DNA from: a virus
IMG/VR virus record: IMGVR_UViG_3300049215_000223
Location: 32,001-96,000 of that record
Reading direction: 5' to 3' (one strand)
DNA length: 64,000 nt
Below the pieces are notes generated by a model. The model ran no database searches, was not told the origin of the DNA, and worked only from the letters and a program-made list of their open reading frames with translations. Position numbers and translations under genes: made by a program. This document shows, piece by piece, positions 2,744-20,951 of the stretch. The stretch's first letter is position 1, and each line of letters begins with the position of its first letter.

Positions 2744-2747
2744 AAGT

Positions 2748-3384: not shown

Positions 3385-3634
3385 TTAGGAGAACAAAGAA
3401 TAGGAGAGGAACTTATCTTTGACGTTCATTGGATTGATATTATTAGGACTCATCGGCTTCGATGAGAGTTTTATTTTCCACTGTATCTAGGGCGATGGCA
3501 TAGCTATTTTCAAGGAAGATATCTCGCCATCTAGAATAGATTTGAACTCTAGTAACGCCTGGATGTTTGGCATTGGAGCAGGTAGAACAATAGCCAATGT
3601 TTACTAGGGTATTTTGGCAGAATGGGCAGATCAT
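3385..3634 (-). pseudogene. Frameshifted member of the FS-tag Zn-ribbon family
   Basis: CPFC..CSTC start; a second frame reads SPNNINPMNVKDKFLSYSLFS-TAA(3385); span 250 nt is not a multiple of 3. Confidence 0.75.
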
Positions 3635-3984
3635 GAGAAGGTTAGGATGGTTGCTAGTTTTTGCTCGGCATTTTGGGGAGTGACATTTTGGATGAGATAA
3701 GGGATGTCAAGGATTTTTTTAGCGAAGAACCAGGTTAGTTTTGAGTTATTAGTTTCTGGATTTTTGGTACGAAAGATGATGGTACGATTGCCAGTGAGCC
3801 GCAGATTGAGTTCATACTCGAAGTCTTCCTTTTGGATTTTGAATACAATCTCTTGGAGGTCTTTGTCATGGTAGAATCTAGCTTTGCAAGGTTCGCAATT
3901 CCACCAAGGGGACATGACAGTAGAACAGGCTCCATGGCAGAAGGGACAATAGAATTGGGGCGTTTTGAAGATATTGGGGTCCAT
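3631..3984 (-). CDS. FS-tag Zn-ribbon family protein
   Basis: CPFC..CEPC; ends NAEQKLATILTFS. Confidence 0.85.
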   Translation of the reverse strand: MDPNIFKTPQFYCPFCHGACSTVMSPWWNCEPCKARFYHDKDLQEIVFKIQKEDFEYELNLRLTGNRTIIFRTKNPETNNSKLTWFFAKKILDIPYLIQNVTPQNAEQKLATILTFS

Positions 3985-4030
3985 GAGGGAGGGTCCGGGC
4001 GAGATCGGAAATTTATGTCGCGTAAATTTA

Positions 4031-4369
4031 TTAAATAAAGGTTCTTAGTTTATAGAATCTATCTGCCCAATCCTTGGCGTTATTTGGATTGATATTTGGA
4101 AGATAGTCTAAGGAGATGAGATGGTCATCTTTGGATCTAGATTTGTTGAGGATGTAAGAAGCGAAGGTATGTTCTTGGATAGCGAGGCAGAGAAGGATAT
4201 TATATTCTGGAGTTTGGACTTCGAATTGAATTAGCCAAGGTTCGATGCCTTCATTTTCGGATGGATCCTTTTTGAACATATACATTATTCTTGAGACAGG
4301 GCAGGCATCACAGACCCAAATGAGTCTGGTAAGTCTATCTGCTTCACACTGACAATATCTGCATTTCAT
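4031..4369 (-). CDS. FS-tag Zn-ribbon family protein
   Basis: CRYC..CDAC; ends NAKDWADRFYKLRTFI. Confidence 0.85.
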   Translation of the reverse strand: MKCRYCQCEADRLTRLIWVCDACPVSRIMYMFKKDPSENEGIEPWLIQFEVQTPEYNILLCLAIQEHTFASYILNKSRSKDDHLISLDYLPNINPNNAKDWADRFYKLRTFI

Positions 4370-4692
4370 GAGAATACTGCCAGCTTGAGGAGTTTCAATG
4401 CCAATGCTTCAACTTGTTTAAGATTAATTTCGGCTGGCATTTTGTTAACATTCATTATATGACTTCCAGAATTGGAGTATCTTCCGTCATGAAGAGGTCT
4501 GAAATTATCTTTCAATCCACTTAAACTAGTTGTATTCTTTGCTAGATCGATATCAATTTCATATTATTTATCTTTAAGAATCATATAAAAAGTAATACGA
4601 TTAGGTCTAAACCAAACGCGACATGGGGTGCAGTATTGCGTATCGTGGGTACCAGAGGTAATTTTAGAACAGAATTTGCAAAAAGATATCAT
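4366..4692 (-). pseudogene. FS-tag Zn-ribbon family member with one in-frame TAA (absent from ORF track)
   Basis: MISFCKFC..YCTPC..LKDK*YEIDID..ALALKLLKLAVFS; TAA at 4564-4566; ATGA overlaps at both ends. Confidence 0.85.
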
Positions 4693-4958
4693 GAGAATAA
4701 CACGTAGGTTTTAACTTTTTCAATCATATTTTCGGGCGTGAAGTTTGGCAAGGAATCCATCTGGAACAGCAGCTCTCCATTTGTATATATTTCGCACTTT
4801 TGATCTTCAAAGTTAAGATAAACTTCATATTTGCCTGTAGCTAAAACAACGCCATTGAGTTTGTCTTTTTTACCAAACTGATGGACGACCACGACAGAAT
4901 GGTAATCGCAACAATTACTTACTGGAATGGGAGACTGGCAGTAGTAACATTTTTTCAT
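4689..4958 (-). CDS. FS-tag Zn-ribbon family protein
   Basis: CYYC..CCDYH; ends NMIEKVKTYVLFS. Confidence 0.85.
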   Translation of the reverse strand: MKKCYYCQSPIPVSNCCDYHSVVVVHQFGKKDKLNGVVLATGKYEVYLNFEDQKCEIYTNGELLFQMDSLPNFTPENMIEKVKTYVLFS

Positions 4959-5269
4959 GAAAAGGTAACAATAGTTTTAAGTTTGGCGTACAATTTTTCT
5001 GGGGAGTCTAGTTTGAGTTCTTCATTAAGAACTATTGGCATATCTCCAAAATTTTTGGTTTCTTTATTATAATAAAATATATAAGACTTACCATTGTACA
5101 AGTGTAATCTAAAGGGAGGGATGCTACATACTTGTAATTGATTGGTAGTATGTAGAGAATAATGAGATTGCTTGATGAAGGTGTCAGCATCAAAACTAAT
5201 ATGAGTAGGACAGATAAAATCCTCAAGGGCGGCAGGAGTTAGTTCACGTTGGCATAATGGACATTTCAT
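4955..5269 (-). CDS. FS-tag Zn-ribbon family protein
   Basis: CPLC..CPTH; ends KLYAKLKTIVTFS. Confidence 0.85.
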   Translation of the reverse strand: MKCPLCQRELTPAALEDFICPTHISFDADTFIKQSHYSLHTTNQLQVCSIPPFRLHLYNGKSYIFYYNKETKNFGDMPIVLNEELKLDSPEKLYAKLKTIVTFS

Positions 5270-5637
5270 AGGAAGATTAGATAGGTTTTGAGTTTGTGCT
5301 TAGCATTCTCGGGAGTGATTGGAAGGATTTCGTTAGCAATCATTAGAACGTCTACCAGTTTAGCACGGACACGTTGACGTTCAGGAGTATATGGAACTTT
5401 ATAAATCAATAGAGTTTGAGTCGTTTCGAAATCAAATTGAAAATGATAAGTTCCATCCTTAGTAGGATCATTTGTATGAAGGGTGAATTCCACATAAACC
5501 AATTTACCATTATTGTATCTTATAAGCGTGGTACAATGTTTAGTACAAGTTTCACAATACCAAGACTCTGGCTGACGATCCTTAAACATAGGTAAAGGAA
5601 CTGTATGATCAGGGGTTTGGCAGAATGGACAATTCAT
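5266..5637 (-). CDS. FS-tag Zn-ribbon family protein
   Basis: CPFC..CETC; ends NAKHKLKTYLIFL. Confidence 0.85.
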   Translation of the reverse strand: MNCPFCQTPDHTVPLPMFKDRQPESWYCETCTKHCTTLIRYNNGKLVYVEFTLHTNDPTKDGTYHFQFDFETTQTLLIYKVPYTPERQRVRAKLVDVLMIANEILPITPENAKHKLKTYLIFL

Positions 5638-5935
5638 GAAAAAGTTAGTAGAGTTGGAAGTTTCTTTTCAAAGTTTTGGGGTGATACTCTAGCTCTAAAA
5701 TGATATTATTAATTTTGACATCAGTACTATTGGTAGTTAGTCTAAAGAAAGGCTGATCAAAATAGAAGAAAGAAGCAGTATAGTTCTTATAGTAAAATGA
5801 ATAAGAAGCTATATCATTCATCACTATAGAGAACCAATAGTTAACATTATACTTGGAACAGTGATATCGTATGTATGCTCCATCATTGGTACTGAACATT
5901 TCAGTAATCATTCTTACACAGAAATAGCACTTCAT
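5634..5935 (-). pseudogene. Frameshifted member of the FS-tag Zn-ribbon family
   Basis: CYFC start; frame stops at 5645, but an alternate frame gives PQNFEKKLPTLLTFS-TGA overlapping the next ATG. Confidence 0.8.
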
Positions 5936-6270
5936 GCGAATGTTAACAAGGTTTGGAGTTTTTCTTTTACATTTTGCGGATTGACTCCCTGGATTAGTTC
6001 TGAGATTTCCAAGATAGGAGGCTTATACATGTCGAGCCCATTGAAGAGTCCAGTCTCACTATGTAATGCTCTGACTCTAGTTTTATTTTGGGTAAACAGT
6101 AGTTCTATAATATACATGGTGTTGGGTTTTCTGACAGAGAACGACATAGCCTCTAGTGATTCGGGACCTTCTTTAAACTCGACGCAGCATACGGCACATC
6201 TCCACCAATCACCAGGTTGGATGGTTATTTTAATACAGCGCCCGGAGCAGAAATAGCAATAGTAGTTCAT
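5932..6270 (-). CDS. FS-tag Zn-ribbon family protein
   Basis: CYFC..CAVC; ends NVKEKLQTLLTFA. Confidence 0.85.
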   Translation of the reverse strand: MNYYCYFCSGRCIKITIQPGDWWRCAVCCVEFKEGPESLEAMSFSVRKPNTMYIIELLFTQNKTRVRALHSETGLFNGLDMYKPPILEISELIQGVNPQNVKEKLQTLLTFA

Positions 6271-6629
6271 GAAAATGTAATTATTGTTTTGATTCTTTTA
6301 GGAGAGATTAATGTGGAAGTAAGATTATCAAACTGTTGCAGTGGCATATCATAAATCTTGCTATACCCCGAGGCGTCTCGTCTTTCCAACCAAACAGCTG
6401 TATAGTCCATTTCGAAAAAAGAAGTTAACGAAATTATTCTATCATCATAGAAATATGCAACTTCAGCATAAGACATTCCTGTTTTAGGACGAAACTCAAA
6501 CCAAGACTCAGGAATTGAATGTTCTCTAAGTTTACTAACTATTTCTTTATTACAGTAGTATATTTGTTTCTGAGCATCTGAATGATGAAGTTGTAATATA
6601 CTTTGACAGATGGGGCACTTATAACTCAT
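6267..6629 (-). CDS. FS-tag Zn-ribbon family protein
   Basis: CPIC..YCN; ends PKRIKTIITFS. Confidence 0.85.
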   Translation of the reverse strand: MSYKCPICQSILQLHHSDAQKQIYYCNKEIVSKLREHSIPESWFEFRPKTGMSYAEVAYFYDDRIISLTSFFEMDYTAVWLERRDASGYSKIYDMPLQQFDNLTSTLISPKRIKTIITFS

Positions 6630-6943
6630 AGGAATGTTAGGATAGTTGTGATTTTAGATTCAATATTTTTAGGATTAATATTGGGGGCTGGATTAAAATG
6701 ATGGATGTTCTGACCCTTTTCATCTATCAAATCAGCTTTATCAGCTTCGGGGAAAATATGAAGTATATATTTTTTACCTCTAATAAGAGTCCACAGTTCA
6801 ATAGTATATGCTGTAATTTGTCTATTAACACGAAATGTAGATCGGCAAGACGTACAACCCCAATATATATTATTACCTGACATTTTACCTATTTGGCATC
6901 GGCGCTTACAAAAATAACAAATATAAAATAATGATTCGCTCAT
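6626..6943 (-). CDS. FS-tag Zn-ribbon family protein
   Basis: CYFC..CTSC; ends NIESKITTILTFL. Confidence 0.85.
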   Translation of the reverse strand: MSESLFYICYFCKRRCQIGKMSGNNIYWGCTSCRSTFRVNRQITAYTIELWTLIRGKKYILHIFPEADKADLIDEKGQNIHHFNPAPNINPKNIESKITTILTFL

Positions 6944-7251
6944 AGGAAAGTTAAGTACAGTTTAATTTTTTCTTCTACATTGCTTGGAGTAATATTGGGT
7001 GGAATAAATGGAAGACGAACAACCGAATCATGAATATATCCGGGACCACATATTTCAGAGCATTTATACTCTAAGTCTATAACAAAAGAATATCCAGGCT
7101 GATTGCCTTTCTTACCAAGTTTACAATCCATGAATACCCATTTAATAACATCCTGTTCAAGTTGGTATTCTACATTGCAATCGAAGCATTTACGACGAAT
7201 AGCGGAGCCGTAAAACTGTGGGAGCATGTTATTGCAATATAAGCAGTTCAT
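6940..7251 (-). CDS. FS-tag Zn-ribbon family protein
   Basis: CLYC..CFDC; ends NVEEKIKLYLTFL. Confidence 0.85.
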   Translation of the reverse strand: MNCLYCNNMLPQFYGSAIRRKCFDCNVEYQLEQDVIKWVFMDCKLGKKGNQPGYSFVIDLEYKCSEICGPGYIHDSVVRLPFIPPNITPSNVEEKIKLYLTFL

Positions 7252-7607
7252 AGGAAATAAGCTAGTGTTTGTAGCTTCCTATCTAAATCTTCTAAATTAA
7301 AAATATCTATTTTCTTAGTTGGCAGTTTAATGAGTGTGGAAGCAACGCCGCCATAGCGCTTTAATATTTGTCTGGAATAGATATGAGCTTCGTTAGGGAA
7401 CGAGGAATTTTGGAAGTAAGTGTATACATTAAAATTTTTAGTAGAGAACCGCAAATAACTTAATTCTGGCTCATCAAAAGCATCCTTGAAATACTGCGAG
7501 TATTCAGTTGCACAATACCCACTACAATATTCATAATACAATCTGCCCTGCAAAGGTGGACGATGGATAGCTCCATTACAATAGGGGCAATGAATAAATG
7601 GTTTCAT
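7248..7607 (-). CDS. FS-tag Zn-ribbon family protein
   Basis: CPYC..CSGYC; ends DLDRKLQTLAYFL. Confidence 0.85.
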   Translation of the reverse strand: MKPFIHCPYCNGAIHRPPLQGRLYYEYCSGYCATEYSQYFKDAFDEPELSYLRFSTKNFNVYTYFQNSSFPNEAHIYSRQILKRYGGVASTLIKLPTKKIDIFNLEDLDRKLQTLAYFL

Positions 7608-7972
7608 GAGAACGTTAGATAGACAGGTAATTTAGACTCTACATTTTCTGGTGTAATATCGGGGTGAAAGTCTAAGGTAAAAATAGTTTCGCTGGGTTTC
7701 CTATTATCGAATGGAATCTTAGCGATGGAAAATTTGGGGTGAGTTGGATCTAACTTGCCGTGGTAGAAGTTGACACGGTAATTTGTTTCTTTGAAGCGGC
7801 AGATCAAAGATGTCCATGTATAGCTAGTAACATCGCCAAGAGCCATCGCAATAAATTGTACCCTTACTGAACCATGATAATCGCACTGATAGGCAGGAAA
7901 ATTCATTCTTCCCCCAGGTCTATCGTTGGTTGCAGTTTTACGACACTCAGTTTGGCAATATGTACATTTCAT
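7604..7972 (-). CDS. FS-tag Zn-ribbon family protein
   Basis: CTYC..CDYH; ends NVESKLPVYLTFS. Confidence 0.85.
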   Translation of the reverse strand: MKCTYCQTECRKTATNDRPGGRMNFPAYQCDYHGSVRVQFIAMALGDVTSYTWTSLICRFKETNYRVNFYHGKLDPTHPKFSIAKIPFDNRKPSETIFTLDFHPDITPENVESKLPVYLTFS

Positions 7973-7973
7973 G

Positions 7974-8303
7974 TTAGCTAAATATTAGATAGGTTTTAAT
8001 TTTGTTTTCTATATTTTGAGGAGTGATATGATCTGGTATAAAATTTAGTGAGAAGATTAAATCTCCAAACCACATAGACATAAAATCATCTCTTATCCAT
8101 TCTAGGATTTCAAACTTATTACTTACAATATGTAATCTGGCATCGTAATCTTTATTATTAATAGTTCTTCTAAATAGAATTAAATCATAAACATTATCTT
8201 TCTTTCGAAAGTAACAATTACAAGATTGGCACGTCCAATGTTCTTCCTGAGAAATATTCCACTCATACTGTGTACAAGATGTATTACAATAACTACAGAT
8301 CAT
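7974..8303 (-). CDS. FS-tag Zn-ribbon family protein
   Basis: CSYC..CQSC; ends NIENKIKTYLIFS. Confidence 0.85.
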   Translation of the reverse strand: MICSYCNTSCTQYEWNISQEEHWTCQSCNCYFRKKDNVYDLILFRRTINNKDYDARLHIVSNKFEILEWIRDDFMSMWFGDLIFSLNFIPDHITPQNIENKIKTYLIFS

Positions 8304-8632
8304 GAGAAGTTGATATACGTTCTTATTTTATCGGCAACATTTTGTGGAGTAACACCAATTAAAATATATGGGAATGACACTACAATAATAAGGGTTCCCT
8401 CGGGATCTTCTGGGTAAGCAACTATTCTAGATTCACCACTATCGTACATTAGTTGTAGACTATAAAGATGATTCTTTACCCGTGCATCTAAACAAACAAC
8501 ATTCACGTCGCCATTATAGTGAATTTGATAATGAGCCATACAATCTTCACAATACCACCAATCATCAACTAAATCAGCCTCATCTCTGTCCATGCAGTTT
8601 TTATTGCAAAAACTGCAAATTGGTGTAGTCAT
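8300..8632 (-). CDS. FS-tag Zn-ribbon family protein
   Basis: CSFC..CEDC; ends NVADKIRTYINFS. Confidence 0.85.
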   Translation of the reverse strand: MTTPICSFCNKNCMDRDEADLVDDWWYCEDCMAHYQIHYNGDVNVVCLDARVKNHLYSLQLMYDSGESRIVAYPEDPEGTLIIVVSFPYILIGVTPQNVADKIRTYINFS

Positions 8633-9069
8633 GTGAACACCGTCAGATTCATAAGACGGTTGAATAGTTTCTGCGCTTCTGTGTGCATATCATTGTCAGT
8701 TGAGATTGGTATAAATTTGACGCTAATAATAGGGGATACGAGATTTTTAGCCGTCCAGCTTGAAGGGATCATGTACCCATCCATCGTACTGAACGAAGGG
8801 CTAGCTTTCCCTGTAAGTTGATGTATTCTAGTACATTGTTTGCCTTCCATAGCAAACCAATTATTTTTAACTTTGAAAGGCAGATGGTAATTCCAGCACT
8901 GCCACCTTTCACTCTCACGGACCAAGACTCCCATATGAGGAGTGTACGCTACTTTACGGGCTGGGCAATCAATGTTCCAGCAATGCAAGTCCATGCGTTT
9001 AGTTGTTTCATTAAACTTATTTATCTCACTGCGATTATACATTACTGAGAAACAAGATGGACAGTTCAT
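8629..9069 (-). CDS. FS-tag Zn-ribbon family protein
   Basis: CPSC..CWNIDC; ends KLFNRLMNLTVFT. Confidence 0.8.
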   Translation of the reverse strand: MNCPSCFSVMYNRSEINKFNETTKRMDLHCWNIDCPARKVAYTPHMGVLVRESERWQCWNYHLPFKVKNNWFAMEGKQCTRIHQLTGKASPSFSTMDGYMIPSSWTAKNLVSPIISVKFIPISTDNDMHTEAQKLFNRLMNLTVFT

Positions 9070-9434
9070 AGGAAGACCTTTAGATTCAAAATTCTTCTAA
9101 CCAAATTCTCATAGAAAGAAATGTCATCGGCAACTGGGTAAAATTGATTATCAAGTGTTATGCATTGATTTGCGCTCTGCCCTGGTTGCCATATTTCTGA
9201 ATAAGACCAACCATCATTATAACTAGTGAAATCATAGCTTTTGCCATCTACTACAATATTAATTTCATAGTCATTAATACGCTGGCTAGGATATTCTGCA
9301 AATCCCCAGAATCTAGTATTCTCTCCATCATCTAGACAGTAAGGGTTTTGACATTCCACTTCATAATACCTAGGACCTCCCTTAGGCTCTCGTTCTTTGA
9401 ATGTAAGTGGAGTTAGGCAGACGGGGCAGTTCAT
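9066..9434 (-). CDS. FS-tag Zn-ribbon family protein
   Basis: CPVC..CQNPYC; ends LVRRILNLKVFL. Confidence 0.8.
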   Translation of the reverse strand: MNCPVCLTPLTFKEREPKGGPRYYEVECQNPYCLDDGENTRFWGFAEYPSQRINDYEINIVVDGKSYDFTSYNDGWSYSEIWQPGQSANQCITLDNQFYPVADDISFYENLVRRILNLKVFL

Positions 9435-9775
9435 AGGAAAGTTAGTATAGTTGATAGTTTATGTACGACGTTGGATGGAGTGACGTTGGGAATGGTAGGC
9501 AACTCAAGCACGACTCTTTGAGTAAATTGTGCATCATCTGCTTGTAAAATTTCAGTGATACGACATTCCTGACCAGGATATAACAATTGAACTGAATATC
9601 TATTGTTACTTATTGATACTGCCAAACAAATCATACTTAGTTCTTGAGTCTTAACATCTACAGTATGACGAACCATAACTGGACATTTATGACATTTCCA
9701 AACCTCAAGAAATTGGGACAGATTGTCTTCTAGTTGTGCCAGCTCGCATGGTTGTTGGCAGAAGTGACAGTTCAC
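9431..9775 (-). CDS. FS-tag Zn-ribbon family protein
   Basis: CHFC..CHKC; ends NVVHKLSTILTFL. Confidence 0.85.
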   Translation of the reverse strand: MNCHFCQQPCELAQLEDNLSQFLEVWKCHKCPVMVRHTVDVKTQELSMICLAVSISNNRYSVQLLYPGQECRITEILQADDAQFTQRVVLELPTIPNVTPSNVVHKLSTILTFL

Positions 9776-10173
9776 GAGAACACCAGTAGCATTCTTATTT
9801 TAGCCTCAACATTCTGTGGCGTCATCTCAGGAAAGATATCTCCCTTGTCAGCATCAAACTGCCTAATGCACTGTAAGTCCTTATTGACTTTCTCACCAGG
9901 AATACCGGGATCTCCGATATACCAGAGCGAAGCAATCTTCCTATCAGGAGTGCAGCTCCATCGATACGTCTCTCCATTAATTTTGGTATAGAGATTGATT
10001 CCGCTTATATTTCCGCTTTGATAATGTAGATATTCAGATTGACAATGATGACAAAAATAAACGCTCATACCATATCTACTTACTTCTTCTAATGGAGCAT
10101 ATGGCGCGGGGCGTCCGCAGAACTTACATGGTTTAGGTAAATGATGCTTTTGAAACTGATTATCATCACTCAT
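9772..10173 (-). CDS. FS-tag Zn-ribbon family protein
   Basis: CKFC..CHHC; ends NVEAKIRMLLVFS. Confidence 0.85.
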   Translation of the reverse strand: MSDDNQFQKHHLPKPCKFCGRPAPYAPLEEVSRYGMSVYFCHHCQSEYLHYQSGNISGINLYTKINGETYRWSCTPDRKIASLWYIGDPGIPGEKVNKDLQCIRQFDADKGDIFPEMTPQNVEAKIRMLLVFS

Positions 10174-10556
10174 AGGAATATCATTAATTTTTGAAGTCTG
10201 TCCAATAGATTTTCAGAAGTATCAGCTTTAATCCGAGAGGTTTGTATCACAAACTTCCAGGCATTCATCATGGTCTTGTTTGCATATTGGTCATGAATTT
10301 TATAAACTCTAGATTTTGATTCATTTCCAAAATTATCTATTGCATATGGAAGGACATACATATGCTGGATAGCCGCGCGATTATCCGACTCCACTTCATA
10401 GTGATTGATTTCGTGAACGTTGGTAGCCCCTTGCAACTCAACTTTGGTAGGACAAAAGTATACGTTGACTTTTGCCACCTGACGGTACTGTAATACTTTA
10501 CCGCACAGTGGACAGGTCCTAATTTCAAAATTAATCATAGCTGGGGAGGGCTCCAT
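10170..10556 (-). CDS. FS-tag Zn-ribbon family protein
   Basis: CPLC..FCP; ends LLDRLQKLMIFL; start codon uncertain. Confidence 0.8.
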   Translation of the reverse strand: MEPSPAMINFEIRTCPLCGKVLQYRQVAKVNVYFCPTKVELQGATNVHEINHYEVESDNRAAIQHMYVLPYAIDNFGNESKSRVYKIHDQYANKTMMNAWKFVIQTSRIKADTSENLLDRLQKLMIFL

Positions 10557-10593
10557 CCTATATTGTATGTCTTTTGAGGCGCAGAGTCAAGGA

Positions 10594-10965
10594 TCACGAG
10601 AACACTAAGTACATCTTTATGCGGTTAACAACCTCTTGTGTATCGTGCCAAGGCAAATAGAGTGCCTTCTCCAACGTTATAAGATGTTTTTCAAATTGAT
10701 TGGGTCCTTCTAACCCATCTCTCCAGTCTGTAGTGCAAATTCTTGTTTTCTTGGCATCTTCAGTATCCCACATGGTTATGTCATATGGTCCAACTTCTAG
10801 AGAGAATATCTCTGGATTATTATTATATGGATTAACCCAAACAGAAGCATGACTAATGTTAACCATAATTTCCAAATCTTCTATCCAAGTTTGTTTTTTA
10901 GGGCATTGGAGAATTTCTTTATTGAAAGTAACTTCCATTAAATTATTACAAATAGGACAATTCAT
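10594..10965 (-). CDS. FS-tag Zn-ribbon family protein
   Basis: CPIC..QCP; ends VVNRIKMYLVFS. Confidence 0.85.
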   Translation of the reverse strand: MNCPICNNLMEVTFNKEILQCPKKQTWIEDLEIMVNISHASVWVNPYNNNPEIFSLEVGPYDITMWDTEDAKKTRICTTDWRDGLEGPNQFEKHLITLEKALYLPWHDTQEVVNRIKMYLVFS

Positions 10966-11291
10966 GAGAACAACATTAGGGTATCTAGTTTATCTTCCAT
11001 CAAATCAAGATTCTTAAAATCAGTTTTAAGAACTCTGTCAATTTTAACTGCATCGTATAACAAACAATAATCTAATTTATAAACAATAGTGTGTAAATCA
11101 TCATAGTTTATTCTAACGTAATACTTACCCAACATAAATTCTTGTCTAGATATTGTGGTTGGATAGTTATTATAGATTGCTATAAAGCGAGCCATATCAC
11201 TCACAGCACAGCCTGATGCCGTACACCAATACGCAGTGTCATTTAGGGCTTGATGAGACATCAGCTTTGCAGCGCAGAAGGGACAATTCAT
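10962..11291 (-). CDS. FS-tag Zn-ribbon family protein
   Basis: Start moved to ATG 11291 (ATGA overlap); CPFC..CTASGC; ends MEDKLDTLMLFS. Confidence 0.85.
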   Translation of the reverse strand: MNCPFCAAKLMSHQALNDTAYWCTASGCAVSDMARFIAIYNNYPTTISRQEFMLGKYYVRINYDDLHTIVYKLDYCLLYDAVKIDRVLKTDFKNLDLMEDKLDTLMLFS

Positions 11292-12279: not shown

Positions 12280-12351
12280 GTATCAGTATATAACCCACGA
12301 AATCGAGTAATAATGTCGCATCCTTACAATAAAAGAAAAGATAAGGAAAAT

Positions 12352-12747: not shown

Positions 12748-13125
12748 CGTATAGGTATCTAATTTCTTTTTAAGCAATTCAAGATCATAGAATGGAAGTT
12801 CCAGCAGACTATCTATCTCACATACTGGTTTAGATAATGACATTGGTTCCATATCTGGAGAGTTCTCAAAAATTCCAATCACGTTCTTAAAAATCATTGT
12901 ATAATTACACTTACTACTTATCAAGCTTCTGCGATAGAACAAATTAATATAGTACTCATCAATCCTAAAAGAGTCAGCCAACATATTATTAGAAGCATCA
13001 TACAATCTTCTGTGTAGGGTATTATATTTTGGAAACTGACAGTTTCTACATTCCCTTAATGTGAGCAAATCAGAATTGGTATGACTAGCCCAAACTAATG
13101 GTTGATGGCAAAAAGAGCAGTTCAT
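12736..13125 (-). CDS. FS-tag Zn-ribbon family protein
   Basis: CSFC..CRNC; ends LKKKLDTYTLFS. Confidence 0.85.
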   Translation of the reverse strand: MNCSFCHQPLVWASHTNSDLLTLRECRNCQFPKYNTLHRRLYDASNNMLADSFRIDEYYINLFYRRSLISSKCNYTMIFKNVIGIFENSPDMEPMSLSKPVCEIDSLLELPFYDLELLKKKLDTYTLFS

Positions 13126-13454
13126 GAAAATGTTATGTAAGTTTTTAACTTTTTAATCAAATGTTTATAATCAGAGAAATCAGGTTCAAAATATGGCAAG
13201 TGCTGACCTTCTGTCTTACTAGTATTTCTAATCTCTAGATCTTTAATAAGCGGAGACCATATTACTATTACTCCATGTGTTAATGGAATTGATACCAATG
13301 ATAATTCATCATATGAGTCCATCAGAGAAATATAGTATATTTTGTGATCTAATTTATTGGTACATTCTTTCTGTAAGCAATTACTTTTTTCGGAACCTAA
13401 AAATGAATTGCACAATGGTTCTTTACAGATTGGACAGTTGATTGGCATTTTCAT
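13122..13454 (-). CDS. FS-tag Zn-ribbon family protein
   Basis: CPIC..CTNKLDH; ends LIKKLKTYITFS. Confidence 0.85.
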   Translation of the reverse strand: MKMPINCPICKEPLCNSFLGSEKSNCLQKECTNKLDHKIYYISLMDSYDELSLVSIPLTHGVIVIWSPLIKDLEIRNTSKTEGQHLPYFEPDFSDYKHLIKKLKTYITFS

Positions 13455-13517
13455 GATGAATGGATTCCGTATATTTTTTATACATAAGCATGTATAGATT
13501 CAAGAGAAGTTAAGAAG

Positions 13518-13943
13518 ATGAGTGTAGTTAGAAGTAAATTAGAACATAGAACGATACTAGATTTTAGCAAGGGCAAGTTATCCAAGAATTTAGTTAAGAA
13601 CTCGCTGCGACAAGTGGATGTACTAGATTGTGTGTCAGCTCCTGGAGTTCATAAACTGATTGTCAACAGAATAAAAGTTGGCATGTATATGATTCAATTA
13701 TGGTTTTCAGATAGAGACACTTCTAGAAATAGAAGAAAATTAAAAGAGTATGGGAAGTTCAATATTCATATTTATGAAGAATGCGCTTCTGGAGATTACA
13801 GATTGATTAGATTAAACCGTGATGTTAGATTTAATAACCAGTACTGGGCATCACTTAATAAAAAGTCAGGCTTAATGGCTAACTCTCTCACTGATGCAAT
13901 TGTTCATTGTAATAGACTCAGTCGTTTAAAAGCATTCTTATGA
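13518..13943 (+). CDS. Tagged protein without Zn ribbon (KAFL subtype), paralog of 18199-18741
   Basis: Ends NRLSRLKAFL; shares IKVG, IYEE and RF..xW motifs with 18199-18741. Confidence 0.75.
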   Translation: MSVVRSKLEHRTILDFSKGKLSKNLVKNSLRQVDVLDCVSAPGVHKLIVNRIKVGMYMIQLWFSDRDTSRNRRKLKEYGKFNIHIYEECASGDYRLIRLNRDVRFNNQYWASLNKKSGLMANSLTDAIVHCNRLSRLKAFL

Positions 13944-14591
13944 AAACATATTGTATATTTTTATCTTATTGATTAGCTGCTCTTTATTGTGAGTATTGGT
14001 TAGATTAACGGCAGGAACACTCAAGTCCATGAGGTCCTCTAGTTTCTGTGTAAAATCAGCGCGGAATATTCTAGATGTGCCAGTGGTAAAGTCCGTGTTA
14101 ATATGGAAGAAAGAGTTATCTAAGCTGAACCCAGCAAACTCACGAAACATCCAACAATTGTAAGTACCATCATCATTAATATTCAGTGCAAATGAATAGA
14201 AGCAAATCTTCTTCTTCAAATTATCAATAGAAGAAAAAACAGATGGCGTATGACTCGTTGCTGCCATAGTCATATTGCTGCTACTGAGACTAGGAGCTGG
14301 AGTACTTGGTTTTATAAGTCGAGTGTCTATATCGTAATTGCAAACGGGACAAGTTTTGCACACAATAAATGGTTTGGCATAAATAGACCAAAATCGGTCA
14401 CCAAGTTCATAGGTGCCATCAAACTTGAAGTTAGCATATACTCTACCCTTAGGTTTGTCTTTGAGGCGGATGCGTAGTTCGTCTGGACTAACGGACAAGC
14501 TCATTCCCACTAACTCTGCACTACCAACAATCATTGGTCGTTGACAGATCAGACACTTATTACGATAGTTTAATAGCTCTTGTAAATTCAT
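13938..14591 (-). CDS. FS-tag family, long (double-unit) form
   Basis: LLNYRNKCLIC, second CKTCPVC; ends LINKIKIYNMFS. Confidence 0.85.
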   Translation of the reverse strand: MNLQELLNYRNKCLICQRPMIVGSAELVGMSLSVSPDELRIRLKDKPKGRVYANFKFDGTYELGDRFWSIYAKPFIVCKTCPVCNYDIDTRLIKPSTPAPSLSSSNMTMAATSHTPSVFSSIDNLKKKICFYSFALNINDDGTYNCWMFREFAGFSLDNSFFHINTDFTTGTSRIFRADFTQKLEDLMDLSVPAVNLTNTHNKEQLINKIKIYNMFS

Positions 14592-15202
14592 GAAAATATC
14601 AAGTAAGTTTTCATCTTGGTGAGAAAATGTTCCTTGTTCCTAAACCTATATCGTGGTAGCAACGGAAGTACGATTGAACCAATAGAATCAGCTCCCCAAT
14701 TATTTTCTAGACTATAATCTTTTTTACCATATGTCAAGGCGCTTTTATTTTCTTTAAAACTAGATGCCATCACATACCAATTGATATTATCACTACAAGA
14801 TAATACTTCATTCTCAATAGGGAATGAGTAAATAAATTCTTTAGTTAAATCAAATCGTAAACACTCACTTTTAATATAAGTAAGACAGCTGCAAAAAGAT
14901 TCTATCCAAATATCATTCTCTGTTAAAAATTTTAATAATCTGGGCTCATCATTTGTTTTAAACTTATTGGTCTTATGAAATATTTTAAGTTTGAGAGTCT
15001 TTTTGTAAGTAATTCTTAAATTCATTTCTACATACTCTGGTGTTACCAGAGGAGTTATCTCTACATTTTTTTCTTCATCAGATTTAGATCCTCTTCCTGT
15101 AGTAATTGATTTTCTAGTTACTATTTTAATAGTAACCGCTTCGCCACAACTGAAACAGGGATTATTATAAGTAATAAAATCTTTAACAGTAAATTTTTTC
15201 AT
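14588..15202 (-). CDS. FS-tag family, long (double-unit) form
   Basis: FITYNNPCFSC, second CSC; ends FLTKMKTYLIFS. Confidence 0.85.
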   Translation of the reverse strand: MKKFTVKDFITYNNPCFSCGEAVTIKIVTRKSITTGRGSKSDEEKNVEITPLVTPEYVEMNLRITYKKTLKLKIFHKTNKFKTNDEPRLLKFLTENDIWIESFCSCLTYIKSECLRFDLTKEFIYSFPIENEVLSCSDNINWYVMASSFKENKSALTYGKKDYSLENNWGADSIGSIVLPLLPRYRFRNKEHFLTKMKTYLIFS

Positions 15203-16296
15203 TATTCTAATTTACTCTTTGTATGAAGAAACGAAACAATGAACCCATGTAAGTTCCCATTAAGCACATCATCGGCATCCCTAATCTCATGTTCAGTACG
15301 ATGATCTTTAACAAGTTGATAAGGAGAAAGCGTGTATGTACGCATTTGATTACCAAAAGCATTTTCTGATTGTGATAAGAAGTATTTTTCTTTTTCGGAC
15401 ATTTGCTTCTTCAGTTCTATGTCATACAACTTAGCTTTAAGCATTTTTAGAGCCGTTCGTTTGTTAGCGTGAAAGTCTCTTTCCGTTCTAACGAAGATAT
15501 GTATACCACTAGGAAAATGCTTTAATCTAACTGCCGAACTTACCTTGTTCTGGTTTTGACCTCCAGGTCCACCAGAAGTTTGAGCTGTTATTTCCATATC
15601 TTTATCATTTATCTTTATGTCAATTGTGTCTTCAATGTCAGGCACAACAGCCACAGCGGCAAAAGAGGTATGTCGAGCGTCGCCAGAGTTAAAAGGAGAG
15701 TTACGGATCAGTCTATGAACTCCAGCTTCTCCCTTAAAGAAACCATATGCATAAGGACCATCTATCCTTAGAGATACAGAATCGGTACAGATGCCGCCAT
15801 GCTCTTCAGATGGCTTCATGTCTAATATCTCTAGTTTGAATTTATAACTATCTGCATAGCGAGAATACATACGGAGCAGCATAGTAACCCAATTGGCTGC
15901 CTCCAAGCCTCCTGCGCCTGCGCTGATGGTCAAAATGGCAGGGTTGTTATCTGTAGGATCATTCATCATTTCTTGAAACTCAATTCTGGACAGAATCTCT
16001 TCTACCAAACTGATTTCAGGAATCATAGCCTCTGTTTCTTTAGGCATGGTATTCAGGCACTCTTGAAAGAAAGATACCTGCTCTTTGAGGTATGCCAACT
16101 GCTCTAACAAATCGGATAGCTTCTGCCTTTCCTTCATAAGATCGGCAGCTTCTTTAGGATTGTCCCAAAAGTTAGGGTTGTTGACGAGACTATCTATTTG
16201 TTCCAATCGCAATGTGTGCTGATTGACTGGAACCATTTTTTCCAGGGATTTTATTTTGCCCTGGCAGGATTCAATTAATTGTATTATAGTTTTCAT
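15202..16296 (-). CDS. prfB: Peptide chain release factor 2 (phage-encoded)
   Basis: 364 aa; GEAGVHRLIRNSPF (SPF peptide anticodon), GGPGGQNQNKVSSAVRL (GGQ), WVTMLLRMY, FGNQMRTY. Confidence 0.95.
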   Translation of the reverse strand: MKTIIQLIESCQGKIKSLEKMVPVNQHTLRLEQIDSLVNNPNFWDNPKEAADLMKERQKLSDLLEQLAYLKEQVSFFQECLNTMPKETEAMIPEISLVEEILSRIEFQEMMNDPTDNNPAILTISAGAGGLEAANWVTMLLRMYSRYADSYKFKLEILDMKPSEEHGGICTDSVSLRIDGPYAYGFFKGEAGVHRLIRNSPFNSGDARHTSFAAVAVVPDIEDTIDIKINDKDMEITAQTSGGPGGQNQNKVSSAVRLKHFPSGIHIFVRTERDFHANKRTALKMLKAKLYDIELKKQMSEKEKYFLSQSENAFGNQMRTYTLSPYQLVKDHRTEHEIRDADDVLNGNLHGFIVSFLHTKSKLE

Positions 16297-16916
16297 GAGA
16301 AGGTAACCAAAGTTTTTATGCGTGTAATTATCTTATCTCTACCCATACCCTCTAGATTCATAATCTTTGTTCTAAGGGGTTCGGTGTTCGCATTATCGCG
16401 GAGGTAAATGTTGGTAGAGTTAAAGATCCAGTCATTCTGAACCCAGAGATTGTCTACCACAAAACTCTCCATATATAGTCGAACACTTCTAATTTTCCAA
16501 ACTGAAGGTTCGTTCGGTACTGAGTCACATCTAAAGTTATCGCTAGAGATACAGTAATTTAAACCACATGATCTACTGGGGCAGTATAGCTCAATGTGTG
16601 GTCCCAAATTTTCGAATGTCTCTTGTACCAAAAAGCAATCTAGTATTTCAGTACTGCGATCTTCTTTATTTAAAAGATCGAACTTAACGAGATTAGTTCT
16701 AATGTCTATTTCTACATTAGCCTCTAACTCAAAGCCCGGCGTCGTATGCTTCATGTGAAATTGGAATTTACCATCTTTTTCCTTGGACTTTATAATAGGA
16801 ACATCATTGGAAGAACGGCTGAAATTGATGAATATTATTTCCAATTTGCCACCACAGAAGACGCAACTTTCTTTTATCTTAAAGAAGTCTTCTATGCTGT
16901 CAAAATAACATTTCAT
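16293..16916 (-). CDS. FS-tag family, long (double-unit) form
   Basis: FFKIKESCVFC, second CPSRSC; ends IITRIKTLVTFS. Confidence 0.85.
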   Translation of the reverse strand: MKCYFDSIEDFFKIKESCVFCGGKLEIIFINFSRSSNDVPIIKSKEKDGKFQFHMKHTTPGFELEANVEIDIRTNLVKFDLLNKEDRSTEILDCFLVQETFENLGPHIELYCPSRSCGLNYCISSDNFRCDSVPNEPSVWKIRSVRLYMESFVVDNLWVQNDWIFNSTNIYLRDNANTEPLRTKIMNLEGMGRDKIITRIKTLVTFS

Positions 16917-17518
16917 ACAAAAACTAATAGCCTCTTTATCCTACTCAATGCTTCTTGTGGATTTTTGAGATCCATAGGAATCAATGGAATATATTCGTCA
17001 TTAATGGATCCGTCAACTAAGTGTGCAGTGTAATGAGTTTGTTTGGTTGAATAAATACTAGTGATTTCATACAAGATTCCGTTTTCTTCTAAACTAACTC
17101 TTTCTGAGTTTAATAAAACTTTAGTTAATTTCTTATCAGTTAAATCAATACATATTTGCCAAGTACATGAAAATAAGAAACACTGTTCACATTCTGCTCT
17201 TAGACCCTGATATAAAGTCCCAGAGCGGGGAAGAGGGTTAGGATTAGATGCTATAATTCCCTTAACCCTCCCGCCTGTATACATATGCCGTGTAACTTCC
17301 CTACCGTAAACCTCTATTTTAATTTCGTTGGTATGTGGGTCGATAGTTAAAATATCCTCATTGTTTCCGCCAGACAAGTAAAAAGATATTTTTTGTTTGC
17401 CTCCCTGCCACACAAAATCTTCTACCATAAACTCATTGTTAAAAGTAAGCGTGGAGTCACAGAATGGGCAGTATTTGTGATATTCTAGCGCTTGCTTGAT
17501 GTCAGTGAAAGATATCAT
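16913..17518 (-). CDS. FS-tag family, long (double-unit) form
   Basis: LEYHKYCPFC, second CEQC; ends ALSRIKRLLVFV. Confidence 0.85.
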   Translation of the reverse strand: MISFTDIKQALEYHKYCPFCDSTLTFNNEFMVEDFVWQGGKQKISFYLSGGNNEDILTIDPHTNEIKIEVYGREVTRHMYTGGRVKGIIASNPNPLPRSGTLYQGLRAECEQCFLFSCTWQICIDLTDKKLTKVLLNSERVSLEENGILYEITSIYSTKQTHYTAHLVDGSINDEYIPLIPMDLKNPQEALSRIKRLLVFV

Positions 17519-18168
17519 GAGGATGACGAGTCGTAATATTCATCGAACACTTCTTCGGTAAGTCCTGCGTCAATCAAAATAGGACGACCATCTTTGGTTC
17601 CCCAGGAAGATATCCTAGCAATGTCTCCTGCCAGTAAATCAAATTTTTCGCCTAGACGTTTCATTTCTTTATAAACCTCTGAGTCGGCAACCTTATCAAA
17701 TCCTTTAGGCTTTTCTGAGGTGGACTTCAAACCATATCTAAGAGCCTCACCAAAATCATCAAAATCTAGCCCAGTCATCTCTTTGAAATCTTTGGTAGTT
17801 ATCTTGTCTAAATAGTGTGTTTCTAGCCAGGAGTGATTCTTTGCGCAACTGATGATTTCATTGATGAACTTGGACTTCATCTTAGGGTTGCATTCCACTT
17901 CGTTTTGAGCAATTCCTTTGTCATTCTTAGCCATTTTAACAACTGTCTTATCAGGTGTCAAATACACAATTCTGGAGGAGCCAGAGGATAAGTGCTCTAA
18001 GTTTTTCTCAGCATATTCCTTGCGGGCGGTATACGTTTCCAGCCCTTCCAAGTTCTTTAGGATTGTCTTTAGATCCTTAGAATCGGCAGGCAGCTCTTCG
18101 CTTTCGGCTAGCGATTGGAAGAAATGGGCTAATTTGAGCAACTTATTGATATCCATACGATAATGCAA
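17515..18168 (-). CDS. Protein-kinase-like fold protein (degenerate)
   Basis: SSGSSRIVY, VVKMAK, QNEVE, GDIARISSWG, LIDAG; likely start MDINK at 18156. Confidence 0.6.
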   Translation of the reverse strand: MHYRMDINKLLKLAHFFQSLAESEELPADSKDLKTILKNLEGLETYTARKEYAEKNLEHLSSGSSRIVYLTPDKTVVKMAKNDKGIAQNEVECNPKMKSKFINEIISCAKNHSWLETHYLDKITTKDFKEMTGLDFDDFGEALRYGLKSTSEKPKGFDKVADSEVYKEMKRLGEKFDLLAGDIARISSWGTKDGRPILIDAGLTEEVFDEYYDSSSS

Positions 18169-18198
18169 ACTTAGTAATATTACGTTATATTTTAGAAT

Positions 18199-18741
18199 AT
18201 GAACAATGTATCTAAGGAAGAATACCTAAGACTTATTGAAGAATATGTCAATGACCAATATGGTGATAATGATGGCGATGAAACAACCTTAGACGTTGGA
18301 GCATTTGAAGGGGGATGGATCCCCGCCGATCCACCTGCCAAAGAAAGAATGAAAAATGCTCTAGGTGGGGGCAGTAGCTGCATTGATTTAACCACCGCTA
18401 AGAAAGATAAGATTTCAGACGCACTTTACAAATATCACAATATAAAGGTTGGGGAATTCATTATTAGAATTGAAGAATATCACGGCAGACCTGGTAAAAC
18501 TGGTAAGACTGTTAACCTAACAATGGACGTTTCAGTATGGGAAGAAGTATACAGGACCCCATCTGGTACCCCTTGTAAAATGACATATCGTAAGAATTTC
18601 CACCAAGATAATAAATTTGACAAACGACCTTGGCTAAACTACTTTAGTAATAGTGGAGATGCTCATAACATCCCAGCAGATACAGTAGTTGATGTTATTA
18701 GATGGATGCAAGCTCTTAAGAGAATGACTGCGTTTCTTTAA
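18199..18741 (+). CDS. Tagged protein without Zn ribbon (KAFL subtype), paralog of 13518-13943
   Basis: Ends MQALKRMTAFL; IKVG, VWEE, KFDKRPW. Confidence 0.75.
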   Translation: MNNVSKEEYLRLIEEYVNDQYGDNDGDETTLDVGAFEGGWIPADPPAKERMKNALGGGSSCIDLTTAKKDKISDALYKYHNIKVGEFIIRIEEYHGRPGKTGKTVNLTMDVSVWEEVYRTPSGTPCKMTYRKNFHQDNKFDKRPWLNYFSNSGDAHNIPADTVVDVIRWMQALKRMTAFL

Positions 18742-19379
18742 GAGAACAATATTAATTTTTCTAATCTTTTCAAAGTCTCATCATGAGATGTAAATGGAAT
18801 TAAACCTGTATGCAAATGATTAGTTAATTCATCAGTTATATATTTATTTTCTCTCAAAGATTTAACTTTACCATAATTAATAAAAGTTTCCTTGGATTTA
18901 TAGTATGTTACCATGCTGTATACTTTATAGCCACCTAACATTGCTGGCTTAATTAGCCAACATTGTTCAGTGTGAACTGATAATTCTCCAATAGAGCAAT
19001 TTTTATAATCAAAATTCAAAGGGTTAGTTGCATAATTATATCTTTCACAACTATTACAGTGTTTGTAAATCTTATAACCAGCCAAATTTTCATCTAAACT
19101 TTTGAATCGATCCATTAGAAATCGTGGAGATACATCCTCATATCTAATTTCATCGTGAGTAAAAAATTCTATTCTAAGAGAGTTGTCATCGAATCCAAAA
19201 GAATAACCAACCTTGTAGTGCTTCTGCTTTTTGGTCAAACCATCTAACGGAAACAGAATCAACATACGATTATCTTCAAACCTAATTTTTTGTCTTCTGT
19301 TAGAGTGAAATGCAATGTTCAATGGGTTTTGACAGATAGGGCACTCTTTTTTATAATCAAGGAATTCGCGTAGTTTCAT
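18738..19379 (-). CDS. FS-tag family, long (double-unit) form
   Basis: FLDYKKECPIC, second CNSC; ends TLKRLEKLILFS. Confidence 0.85.
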   Translation of the reverse strand: MKLREFLDYKKECPICQNPLNIAFHSNRRQKIRFEDNRMLILFPLDGLTKKQKHYKVGYSFGFDDNSLRIEFFTHDEIRYEDVSPRFLMDRFKSLDENLAGYKIYKHCNSCERYNYATNPLNFDYKNCSIGELSVHTEQCWLIKPAMLGGYKVYSMVTYYKSKETFINYGKVKSLRENKYITDELTNHLHTGLIPFTSHDETLKRLEKLILFS

Positions 19380-20218
19380 GGGATAGTCTTACAGCATCTA
19401 AAACCGGTATCATAATAGGAAAATGTGGGTCCATGACCATCTGTTCGGGGGCTGCAACGATTTCTAACGCCATGTGGGTGTCCACCCTTAAATACAGATA
19501 CATAAGGTGTGCCGCCTGATGAAACTGCCCACTCATCGGCATTCCCCGTCATATCATATACTCCATATGGTGAGATACAGTTTGGCATTGAACCGGAAGG
19601 AACAGTTTTATCTAGTTGCTCAAAGGTATGTGTTGCTGGGTCTTGCCAAGGTAAATCTATACGGCAAGCATTGGTATCACGAACATACCCATAAGGGTAT
19701 GGAAGATCACTTGGACCTCGACAAGCTTGCGTCCATTCTGTATCTACACAGAGACGTTTACCTTCTGATTCACAAGTCGCTTTAGCTTGATTCCAAGTAG
19801 TTTGCAATTGAGGTTTACTTCCTAATTTATTTGGATATTCGTATTTATCAATACAAAAATTCATGTGTCTAGTCTGACCTTTACAGACCGTTGGCTTCTG
19901 GAACTCCCCGCACCTCATCGGAGAACTCCACTCTTCACAAGTACCAGCATCGTCTTTCTTTACACAAAGAGGAGCATCTAGCCATTTGAGGCAAATCTCT
20001 TCTAGATTTATGCAATATTCTCCGGTTATTTGAACCATATCAGATGGGCAGGTAGATACTGGTTGCACCACAACATCATCTAATGTCAGATCTATAGGGC
20101 TAGAATCTTTTGTTATTGTCTGTGCTCCAATCCGAGATGAAAATTTCTCCGTAGCACAACTCGTTAAAACCAACAAAACTAAAATACAAATACTACTGCG
20201 TCTCATGCAACCTCGCAC
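19376..20218 (-). CDS. FGE-sulfatase (SUMF1) domain lipoprotein
   Basis: Lipobox LTSC; CPSDMV, FCIDKYEYPN, GKRLC..EW..AC, YPYG, GVYDMTGNADEW, GFRCC. Confidence 0.9.
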   Translation of the reverse strand: MRGCMRRSSICILVLLVLTSCATEKFSSRIGAQTITKDSSPIDLTLDDVVVQPVSTCPSDMVQITGEYCINLEEICLKWLDAPLCVKKDDAGTCEEWSSPMRCGEFQKPTVCKGQTRHMNFCIDKYEYPNKLGSKPQLQTTWNQAKATCESEGKRLCVDTEWTQACRGPSDLPYPYGYVRDTNACRIDLPWQDPATHTFEQLDKTVPSGSMPNCISPYGVYDMTGNADEWAVSSGGTPYVSVFKGGHPHGVRNRCSPRTDGHGPTFSYYDTGFRCCKTIP

Positions 20219-20252
20219 CCATATAATATAGCCACAGTGGGGCGAAGTGCAA

Positions 20253-20951
20253 CTAAGAAAACAATAACAGCGTCTTGAGTTTATTCAGTAAAAATTCATG
20301 CTCCAGAGGATACCTTAAAAATTTCTCCGAATTCATTTGTATAACTTGCTGCGTCCCCAAGATGTAGGGTGGCATTGGCATATTGTAAGTAATGCTAGTA
20401 GTCTCTGTTGCAAAATCAGTTTTGAAATAATACTTCATTCTCATACCATTGAGAATGAAGTATTCCGATATAAGAGTAATTGGTTTTAGCTGCATCATGT
20501 CCATGTCAAAAATAATAGGTCCTGTAGATAATTGGTATCTGTACTGACAGCTGGAATGATGGGAGCACTGCAATCTTAGATTGATATTGAATCCAGTTTG
20601 TAACTGTTGAGTAAAGTGTCTCTTAACAAAATCATCCGGTGATGTACTGTATTCCGTGACTGTAGAGACTCCACCCGTTTCATAATATTCAGACTTAATA
20701 CTACAGGACGGATCTTTTAAGTTAGCAAGTATAAGAAAATATACCTGTCCTGATGGAGAAAGACGAGATTCCAAACAGCATGGGAAGGCTACCTGATCTC
20801 CCCCTTTAACTAACTTATAAGCACTCATTGGCTTGATAACAGTATAATCATCATCCATATGAATACCATGATTGAATACGATGGATAAAGGATTACCGCA
20901 TAGACAATTAGTCCTGAAGTTGAAGAGCTGCTCAAATGTCGCAAGTTGCAT
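20253..20951 (-). CDS. FS-tag family, long (double-unit) form; first gene of the array
   Basis: LFNFRTNCLC, second CSHHSSC; ends LLNKLKTLLLFS-TAG; GGAGG SD. Confidence 0.85.
   Translation of the reverse strand: MQLATFEQLFNFRTNCLCGNPLSIVFNHGIHMDDDYTVIKPMSAYKLVKGGDQVAFPCCLESRLSPSGQVYFLILANLKDPSCSIKSEYYETGGVSTVTEYSTSPDDFVKRHFTQQLQTGFNINLRLQCSHHSSCQYRYQLSTGPIIFDMDMMQLKPITLISEYFILNGMRMKYYFKTDFATETTSITYNMPMPPYILGTQQVIQMNSEKFLRYPLEHEFLLNKLKTLLLFS

Follow-up and report, generated by a model that had tools for sequence, protein, structure and literature searches.

The described systems closest to the locus analyzed here are the zinc-ribbon expansion of Bacillus phage G and the internal proteins of T-even phages. 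In phage G, a zinc ribbon has undergone a lineage-specific expansion to ~35 copies (Iyer, Anantharaman, Krishnan, Burroughs and Aravind 2021, PMC7824862). The T-even internal proteins are diverse defense proteins that share only a capsid targeting sequence (PMC3012670). Our locus is a 17.5-kb array of divergent genes, most of them encoding small zinc-ribbon proteins, whose products share a C-terminal helix with phenylalanine as the next-to-last residue. It occupies positions 3385-20951 of a 64,000-nucleotide window (the whole stretch of DNA that was analyzed), which corresponds to bases 32001-96000 of the linear, 178,722-bp phage record IMGVR_UViG_3300049215_000223 of IMG/VR; coordinates below are those of the window unless another contig or record is named. 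Our best explanation, held tentatively and at somewhat less than an even chance, is that the array encodes diversified binders that present one constant docking helix to a common partner.

The phage G expansion is probably the nearest described case, with an alignment that reaches the ribbon only. As at our locus, a giant phage carries a tandem array of divergent paralogs in which a CPxC...CxxxC ribbon is followed by a conserved C-terminal helix. The phage G array, gp447-474 (locus L034, 352.5-371 kb), comprises 28 proteins of ~200 amino acids (aa) with the ribbon in mid-protein. Unlike the window members, these proteins have an extra N-terminal domain of ~110 aa, and their C-terminal motif, YWKENDRYLxKIL plus a variable end, is absent from all window members. 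Profile comparison by hhalign of our zinc-ribbon family (A1) with the phage G proteins (A5) aligned only 25 ribbon columns at a probability of 61%, and profile A2 against A5 gave a probability of 50%, again in the ribbon only. The T-even internal proteins may instead be the closest functional analogy, given that both sets would combine many unrelated or diverged small proteins, one short constant address, a location in a variable genome region, and a counter-defense role. However, the T4 signal is N-terminal, whereas here the constant element is a C-terminal helix within the fold and the N termini are zinc ribbons.

An earlier note on this DNA had claimed 32 minus-strand genes (29 intact and 3 broken) and 2 plus-strand genes, all encoding a penultimate Phe. 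Checking the lists of open reading frames (ORFs) and their endings confirmed both the count and the ending, with the minus-strand genes ending in Phe-X and the two plus-strand genes in AFL. The same check upheld its run of 23 consecutive members (here placed at 3385-11297), its N-terminal CxxC (in 26 of 28 checked ORFs), its TPxN-type start of the helix (found as (T/N/S)PxN in 12 intact and 2 broken members), and the low identity among the protein bodies (13-29% pairwise to a reference member). Counting 30 minus-strand ORFs (29 intact genes and the C-terminal fragment of a broken one), 19 end in FS, 7 in FL, and one each in FA, FT, FV, and FI. The 23 small members are 89-146 aa long, with invariant columns M1, C3, C6, C25, and F108, and six large members (201-232 aa) have their C-terminal 55-95 residues in common with the small ones. 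The plus-strand genes, 13518-13943 (..RLKAFL) and 18199-18741 (..RMTAFL), are paralogs of each other, and two further genes with the ending lie beyond the array (28997-29332, ..NMKAFW; 51268-51750, ..NLKAFL). Of 249 crude genes in the whole 178.7-kb record, 35 encode a penultimate Phe, and only 4 of these fall outside window positions 3.4-21 kb. We also derived a position matrix from the C-terminal 14-mers of the 23 small members, leaving the six large members out of training; these six scored 9.5-25.3, against a 99.99th percentile of 7.4 for 47,185 control 14-mers. Given this clustering of penultimate Phe and these matrix scores, we conclude that the shared ending is beyond chance.

The ending is also not explained at the DNA level. 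The Phe codon is TTC in 19 cases and TTT in 11, the terminal Ser is encoded by TCA, TCG, TCT, TCC, and AGC, and this Ser is retained even in genes without a start/stop overlap, which argues for selection at the protein level. DNA repeats in the array are confined to gene junctions and are just 60-75% identical, which argues against recent duplication or conversion. On these grounds, we ruled out start/stop overlap or a DNA repeat as the cause of the tag.

As judged from sequence, the zinc-ribbon genes are one undescribed, very large, and clade-specific phage family. The earlier note did not recognize the family, and curated resources agree: no Pfam-A hit was found at cutoff, NCBIfam 20 gave chance-level matches only, and the best match among PDB sequences had an E value of 0.16. 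PHROGs v4 returned nothing for the 23 small members, the large members, or the three other protein types with this ending (A4, A6, and the 28997 type, described below), and literature searches turned up only the phage G remark. An exhaustive search with a profile of the 23 small members against 1.84 billion metagenome representatives (E ≤ 1e-3) yielded 1336 clusters, nearly all of ~100-130 aa and aligned end to end, including the last residue. A word-index homology search returned just 5 proteins, and a related-locus search with a single member found nothing. Among the 150 best matches of the profile search, Phe is next to last in 147, with 92 ending in FS and 43 in FL. Isoelectric points (pI) in the family spread from 4.4 to 9.7, which rules out uniform nucleic-acid binding or DNA mimicry. 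Seven proteins of 160-178 aa (P0009, P0035, P0059, P0075, P0081, P0106, and P0109) carry an additional zinc ribbon (55-70 aa) at the N terminus, and P0013 and P0046 are full two-domain forms.

Arrays of this family recur in related phages. The relative G001, whose ribonucleotide reductase (RNR) is 83% identical to that of our record, has at least 18 members in a syntenic, inverted locus with the same gene order: FGE-sulfatase-like gene, large members, phrog_4301 gene, release factor 2 (RF2) gene, and small members. Two 10-kb contigs, L028 and L035, carry ~18-20 members each, and a 480-kb contig carries ~25 members around RF2. In the conserved half of the array, orthologs in G001 are 28-64% identical, compared with 66% for RF2, 72% for the phrog_4301 protein, and 83% for RNR. 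The TPxN members lie in the block 3631-9775, for which only 2-3 G001 counterparts were found, and we therefore conclude that members have been gained and lost lineage by lineage.

We ran AlphaFold2 on the member encoded at 7974-8303 with an alignment of its paralogs. The model is a compact domain (predicted local distance difference test score [pLDDT] of 94.6; predicted template modeling score [pTM] of 0.84) with three short strands forming the zinc ribbon and four long strands (38-48, 51-58, 63-72, and 77-86), followed by a C-terminal helix at 98-108. A homodimer prediction scored 0.04, which weighs neither way. Structure searches returned generic beta-meanders from the PDB and the ESM Atlas and nothing beyond: the best Foldseek E value was 0.088, VIA-align reached at best a Z of 6.2 to LolB over 72 residues with the helix outside the aligned part, and ESM Atlas matches had template modeling (TM) scores up to 0.59, to parts of beta-propellers. 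Feature searches of the ESM Atlas gave no usable lead.

Conservation among 139 relatives peaks at C3, C6, C25, C/H28, Y53, P95, N97, K101, and F108. The strands show an alternation of hydrophobic, conserved positions with positions that are almost unconstrained (0.3-0.7 bits at the variable strand positions), a pattern that fits a constant frame with variable positions in between, although any small beta protein will look similar to some degree. The helix follows the consensus (I/V)TPxN-xxx-K-(L/I)-K-T-(Y/L)-(L/I)-x-F-(S/L)-COOH and carries two stripes, a hydrophobic one (I98/L102/Y105/L106) and a second, nearly invariant one (N97, K101, T104, and F108). The terminal positions 101-109 are all conserved, at 1.9-4.1 bits, including 103 and 107, which on a 100-degree helical period point away from the hydrophobic stripe. 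We also compared the ending to the beta-clamp motif (QL[SD]LF or QLxLxL) and rejected it, since position 103 is K in 69, P in 21, and Q in 13 of 139 sequences and the next residue is Thr in 101 of 139.

Proteins with other bodies also carry this ending. The two plus-strand array genes encode A4-family proteins without a zinc ribbon, of 141 aa (13518-13943, ..NRLSRLKAFL) and 180 aa (18199-18741, ..ALKRMTAFL), and Phe is next to last in 107 of 108 A4 homologs, which end in (M/A)FL. The A6-family protein at 51268-51750 (-) is 160 aa long and ends in ..KKFQNLKAFL, and 13 of 13 A6 homologs end in L[KR]AFx. An unrelated 111-aa protein at 28997-29332 (+) ends in ..ICNMKAFW and its G001 ortholog in ..VKLRMFW, so that both copies of the 28997 type carry the penultimate Phe (KAFW and RMFW). 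The relative G002 has two more non-ribbon proteins with such ends. By hhalign, the zinc-ribbon family (A1) had no similarity to A4 or to A6, and the A4-A6 match was confined to the last 15 residues (E = 4.8e-4); the A4 model likewise has a predicted topology that differs from the zinc-ribbon domain, and its best match to a known structure had a Z of 4.3. When these endings are anchored at the C terminus, position -8 is basic, positions -7 and -4 are hydrophobic, and -1 is Phe in all of them, and the chain stops exactly one residue after this Phe in 267 of 271 sequences from three families (147 of 150, 107 of 108, and 13 of 13). Member 9066-9434 has a family body, recognized even without its tail (E = 2e-4), joined to an A4/A6-type tail, NLKVFL. 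Furthermore, P0013 and P0046, the two-domain proteins, have an internal copy that retains the body (E = 1e-10) along with the hydrophobic stripe (..TPSSTTEEFNKWLE..) but has lost N97, K101, T104, and F108. The ending thus appears on bodies without other detectable similarity, as would be expected of a portable module.

These observations bear on two readings of the tail. We favor, with the reserve expressed above, diversified binders with a constant docking helix. This reading builds on what was observed: the family and its predicted fold, the way in which conservation is distributed, the arrays of related phages, and the occurrence of the same ending on other bodies. The region would be a set of translationally coupled operons for small cytoplasmic proteins, each a single compact domain made of a four-Cys zinc ribbon, a long-strand beta-meander, and a C-terminal helix. 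In the model, the stripe I98/L102/Y105/L106 would pack on the sheet, the second stripe (N97/K101/T104/F108) together with the free end one residue past Phe would form a docking surface for a common partner, and the variable positions would bind targets. The proteins may then represent a repertoire of target binders, most likely effectors of early host takeover or counter-defense. The earlier note had proposed essentially such a library of binders; its divergent family with constant ends is what we found, variable surfaces fit the strand pattern, and several bodies carry the ending. Its loose, appended tag, however, did not survive in the zinc-ribbon family, where the helix is part of a confidently modeled compact domain and the Phe is replaced only by hydrophobic residues. 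In the model, the tail is at least partly a structural helix, and it is probably a structural helix that doubles as a shared interaction element.

The strongest competing explanation, to which we assign an appreciable chance that is nonetheless well short of even, is that the tail is an ordinary element of the fold: the core helix of one old, fast-diverging superfamily of small domains whose paralogs act singly, each, for example, inhibiting a different host protein, with no shared partner. Several results weigh against the docking reading and toward this one. The confident model includes the helix, with a pLDDT of ~96 over its length, and even the terminal helix of the A4 model scores ~85-93. 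The hydrophobic stripe and the alternating conservation of the strands fit a helix packed on a sheet, and the large members match the small ones well beyond the tail, over those C-terminal 55-95 residues. The substitutes for Phe are all hydrophobic, as is typical of a buried core residue: L, W, and Y occur in the set of 150 relatives, and G001 has Y, M, and I. Moreover, A4 and A6 could be one beta-sheet-plus-helix fold diverged past recognition, the argument from the internal copy is based on one two-domain lineage, and most of the conservation could be accounted for by structure alone. The proposed early timing faces a similar difficulty. Sigma70-like boxes occur in the rare gaps 10557-10593 and 20219-20252 (e.g., TTGACT-17-TACAAT at 10562-10590), and early transcription of the array by the host polymerase is weakly suggested, but such boxes number 84 in the region against 72 expected by chance and are consensus matches only. 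On the other side stand the identical ending on A4, A6, and the 28997 type, conservation of both helix faces across the last nine residues, the fixed stop one residue past Phe, and an internal copy that keeps its body yet lacks N, K, T, and F. Because of the shared end, the nine-position conservation, the fixed stop, and the loss in the internal copy, we argue that the tail is more than structure.

A bolder form of the docking idea is that this clade of 0.4- to 0.5-Mb megaphages uses a novel C-terminal signal, basic-Phi-x-x-Phi-x-x-F-x-COOH, placed on at least 35 proteins per genome with unrelated bodies and read by one receptor, such as the phage's own ClpP pair, a hub of the cell, or the capsid interior. 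We consider this less likely than not. As possible partners of the tail, a sliding clamp, a PDZ-domain protein, and ClpX were set aside, since a search of three partial records found no clamp, no PDZ domain, and no clear ClpX-type ATPase, a result that does not imply their absence from the genomes.

Delivery of the proteins with the phage DNA seems unlikely. Here, the helix would send the proteins into the procapsid, from which they would be injected together with the DNA as a counter-defense cocktail in the style of the T4 internal proteins. Many diverse small bodies with one constant end are what such a system would use, and a megaphage capsid would presumably be roomy enough for many proteins. 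However, the neighbors of the array are accessory genes (RF2, proteases, and thyA/folA) and not head genes, its promoter-like boxes of host type point to early and not to late expression, and the T4 signal sits at the opposite end of the protein.

Protease docking appears more improbable. The HbYX motif of proteasome activators and the C-terminal tail of HslU have a hydrophobic-aromatic-X sequence that ends in a free carboxylate, and C-motif 1 of ClpX, which is ssrA-like, has small nonpolar last residues (LAA-COOH). By analogy, the hydrophobic-Phe-X end of the array proteins might be recognized by a ring protease of the host or by a phage ClpP pair, making the proteins short-lived or allowing them to act on the protease. 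The relative G002 does have two tandem, full-length ClpP genes (G002:C1:84801-85952; L039:8768-9952) that score 165-167 bits to PF00574. An FtsK-like ATPase and a topoisomerase I lie near this pair, and no ClpX was seen there. Nevertheless, ClpP was not found in the partial records G000 and G001, no clear ClpX-type unfoldase was found in the partial records searched, and the helix is modeled as packed rather than as a flexible tail. The array also differs from HbYX in its penultimate residue (Phe in 147 of the 150 top matches, Tyr in 1), from ssrA-like ends in its x-F-S or x-F-L endings, and from partners of ring proteases in comprising at least 30 small non-ATPase proteins rather than one activator. 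Finally, a MinD/FtsA-like amphipathic helix with an inner-membrane targeting role is highly improbable, since the helix, although C-terminal, ~13 residues long, with Lys/Arg beside Leu/Phe and a hydrophobic moment (0.25-0.34) like the 0.27 computed for the Escherichia coli MinD tail, is modeled as packed on the domain, has an invariant Asn and Thr and a strict end after Phe unlike known membrane-targeting helices, and is joined by no other pointer to a membrane.

All zinc-ribbon members of the array are on the minus strand. At its downstream edge, 3385-3634 is a broken small member in which a frameshift separates the zinc-ribbon body (3443-3634) from a tail in the other frame (..NPMNVKDKFLSYSLFS, ..LSYSLFS). 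Next come small members at 3631-3984 (117 aa; tail ..TPQNAEQKLATILTFS) and 4031-4369 (112 aa), the latter with an intermediate tail (..FYKLRTFI) and a body recognized by a body-only hidden Markov model (HMM) at an E value of 7e-11. A second broken member, 4366-4692, has an in-frame TAA at 4564-4566 and the tail ..LKLAVFS, and a third, 5634-5935, has a frameshift immediately ahead of its tail (..SPQNFEKKLPTLLTFS, ..KLPTLLTFS). Between these two lie 4689-4958 (89 aa), 4955-5269 (104 aa), and 5266-5637 (123 aa). The run continues with 5932-6270 (112 aa), 6267-6629 (120 aa), 6626-6943 (105 aa), 6940-7251 (103 aa), 7248-7607 (119 aa), 7604-7972 (122 aa), the modeled member at 7974-8303 (109 aa), which has the zinc ribbon, seven strands, and helix 98-108, and 8300-8632 (110 aa). 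The 146-aa CxxC protein at 8629-9069 has a type 2 tail (..NRLMNLTVFT) and a body missed by the family body model (E = 7.4), and the adjacent 122-aa member at 9066-9434 joins a family body recognized by the body-only HMM to the type 2 tail ..RRILNLKVFL. They are followed by 9431-9775 (114 aa, GTG start), 9772-10173 (133 aa), 10170-10556 (128 aa; its G001 ortholog is 43% identical and ends in ..LVAYL), 10594-10965 (123 aa), and 10962-11297 (109-111 aa). Beyond an inserted gene lie 11914-12279 (121 aa; G001 ortholog 64% identical), 12736-13125 (129 aa), and 13122-13454 (110 aa). The large members are 13938-14591 (217 aa), with an N-terminal CxxC, a second Cys pair in mid-protein, and the family C-terminal module, followed by 14588-15202 (204 aa), 16293-16916 (207 aa), 16913-17518 (201 aa; tail ..RIKRLLVFV), 18738-19379 (213 aa), and 20253-20951 (232 aa), which is the first gene of the array.

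Most array genes overlap by ATGA, and their stops are TGA in 23 of 30 cases. Immediately ahead of the first array gene, the minus strand has a strong terminator-like hairpin (21031-21060; 12 pairs and a T run), which divides the array from its upstream neighbor. The gaps 20952-21030, 12280-12330, and 3985-4030 on the minus strand have in common a (C/G)CGACAT box ~17 nucleotides upstream of a TATA-like box, and this box may be a promoter motif. Four minus-strand genes within the array are not family members. The full-length phage RF2 gene (15202-16296), with PCRF and RF-1 domains and SPF and GGQ motifs, overlaps the flanking members at both its start and its stop, and RF2 is coupled into the array in all three genomes (this record, G001, and the 480-kb contig). 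The conserved phrog_4301 gene (17515-18168; a PHROG of unknown function) encodes a protein with Gly-rich, VxK, and DxG-like motifs, which look kinase-like by eye, and without a Pfam match; it and the protein encoded at 21144-21656 (-), which is otherwise different, have a similar N-terminal helix (..LLK.A..F..LA..). The FGE-sulfatase-like gene (19376-20218) encodes a hydrophobic N-terminal leader. The fourth, a GIY-YIG/NUMOD3 homing endonuclease gene (11288-11914), overlaps both flanking members at its ends and had no match among G001 array-locus proteins; given this lack of a G001 counterpart, it looks like a mobile insertion. Next to the array (window 1967-3383 [+]; also L028 8142-8927 and the 480-kb contig) are genes for a metzincin-like protein (HEIGHLLGAKHD) and a trypsin-like protease, each of which starts with a hydrophobic leader, and relatives add a peptidase C39 at this place.

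The source of the array appears to be an uncultured megaphage of ~0.43 Mb to which no cultured phage is close. CheckV estimated the completeness of the record at 42%, which implies a genome of ~0.43 Mb, and homologs of window genes lie on contigs of 480-506 kb. Context genes are phage-like and include those for RNR, DnaB, PhoH-PIN, a collagen-like protein, and virion-like proteins. A DNA search of cultured phages found no match, and protein searches with one A1 and one A4 member likewise found none. The best-covering cultured-phage match to DnaB was that of Bacillus phage G (80% of the query at 25% identity). As a host indicator, RF2 gave matches that were only 39% identical and in unrelated metagenome-assembled genomes.

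Large paralog arrays have been described before in jumbo phages, though not the logic behind them. In this fragment, ~14% of the genes have in common one C-terminal element, which crosses family borders. If this element is a core helix only, the array would be one more uncharacterized expansion, albeit a very large one, as the 1336 clusters attest. As a docking or address signal, by contrast, the element would amount to a code for sorting or recruitment that is new to phage biology. The tail peptide would then offer a handle on the hub at which a whole effector repertoire converges, and the family would constitute a natural, small, zinc-stabilized scaffold with many diversified surfaces.

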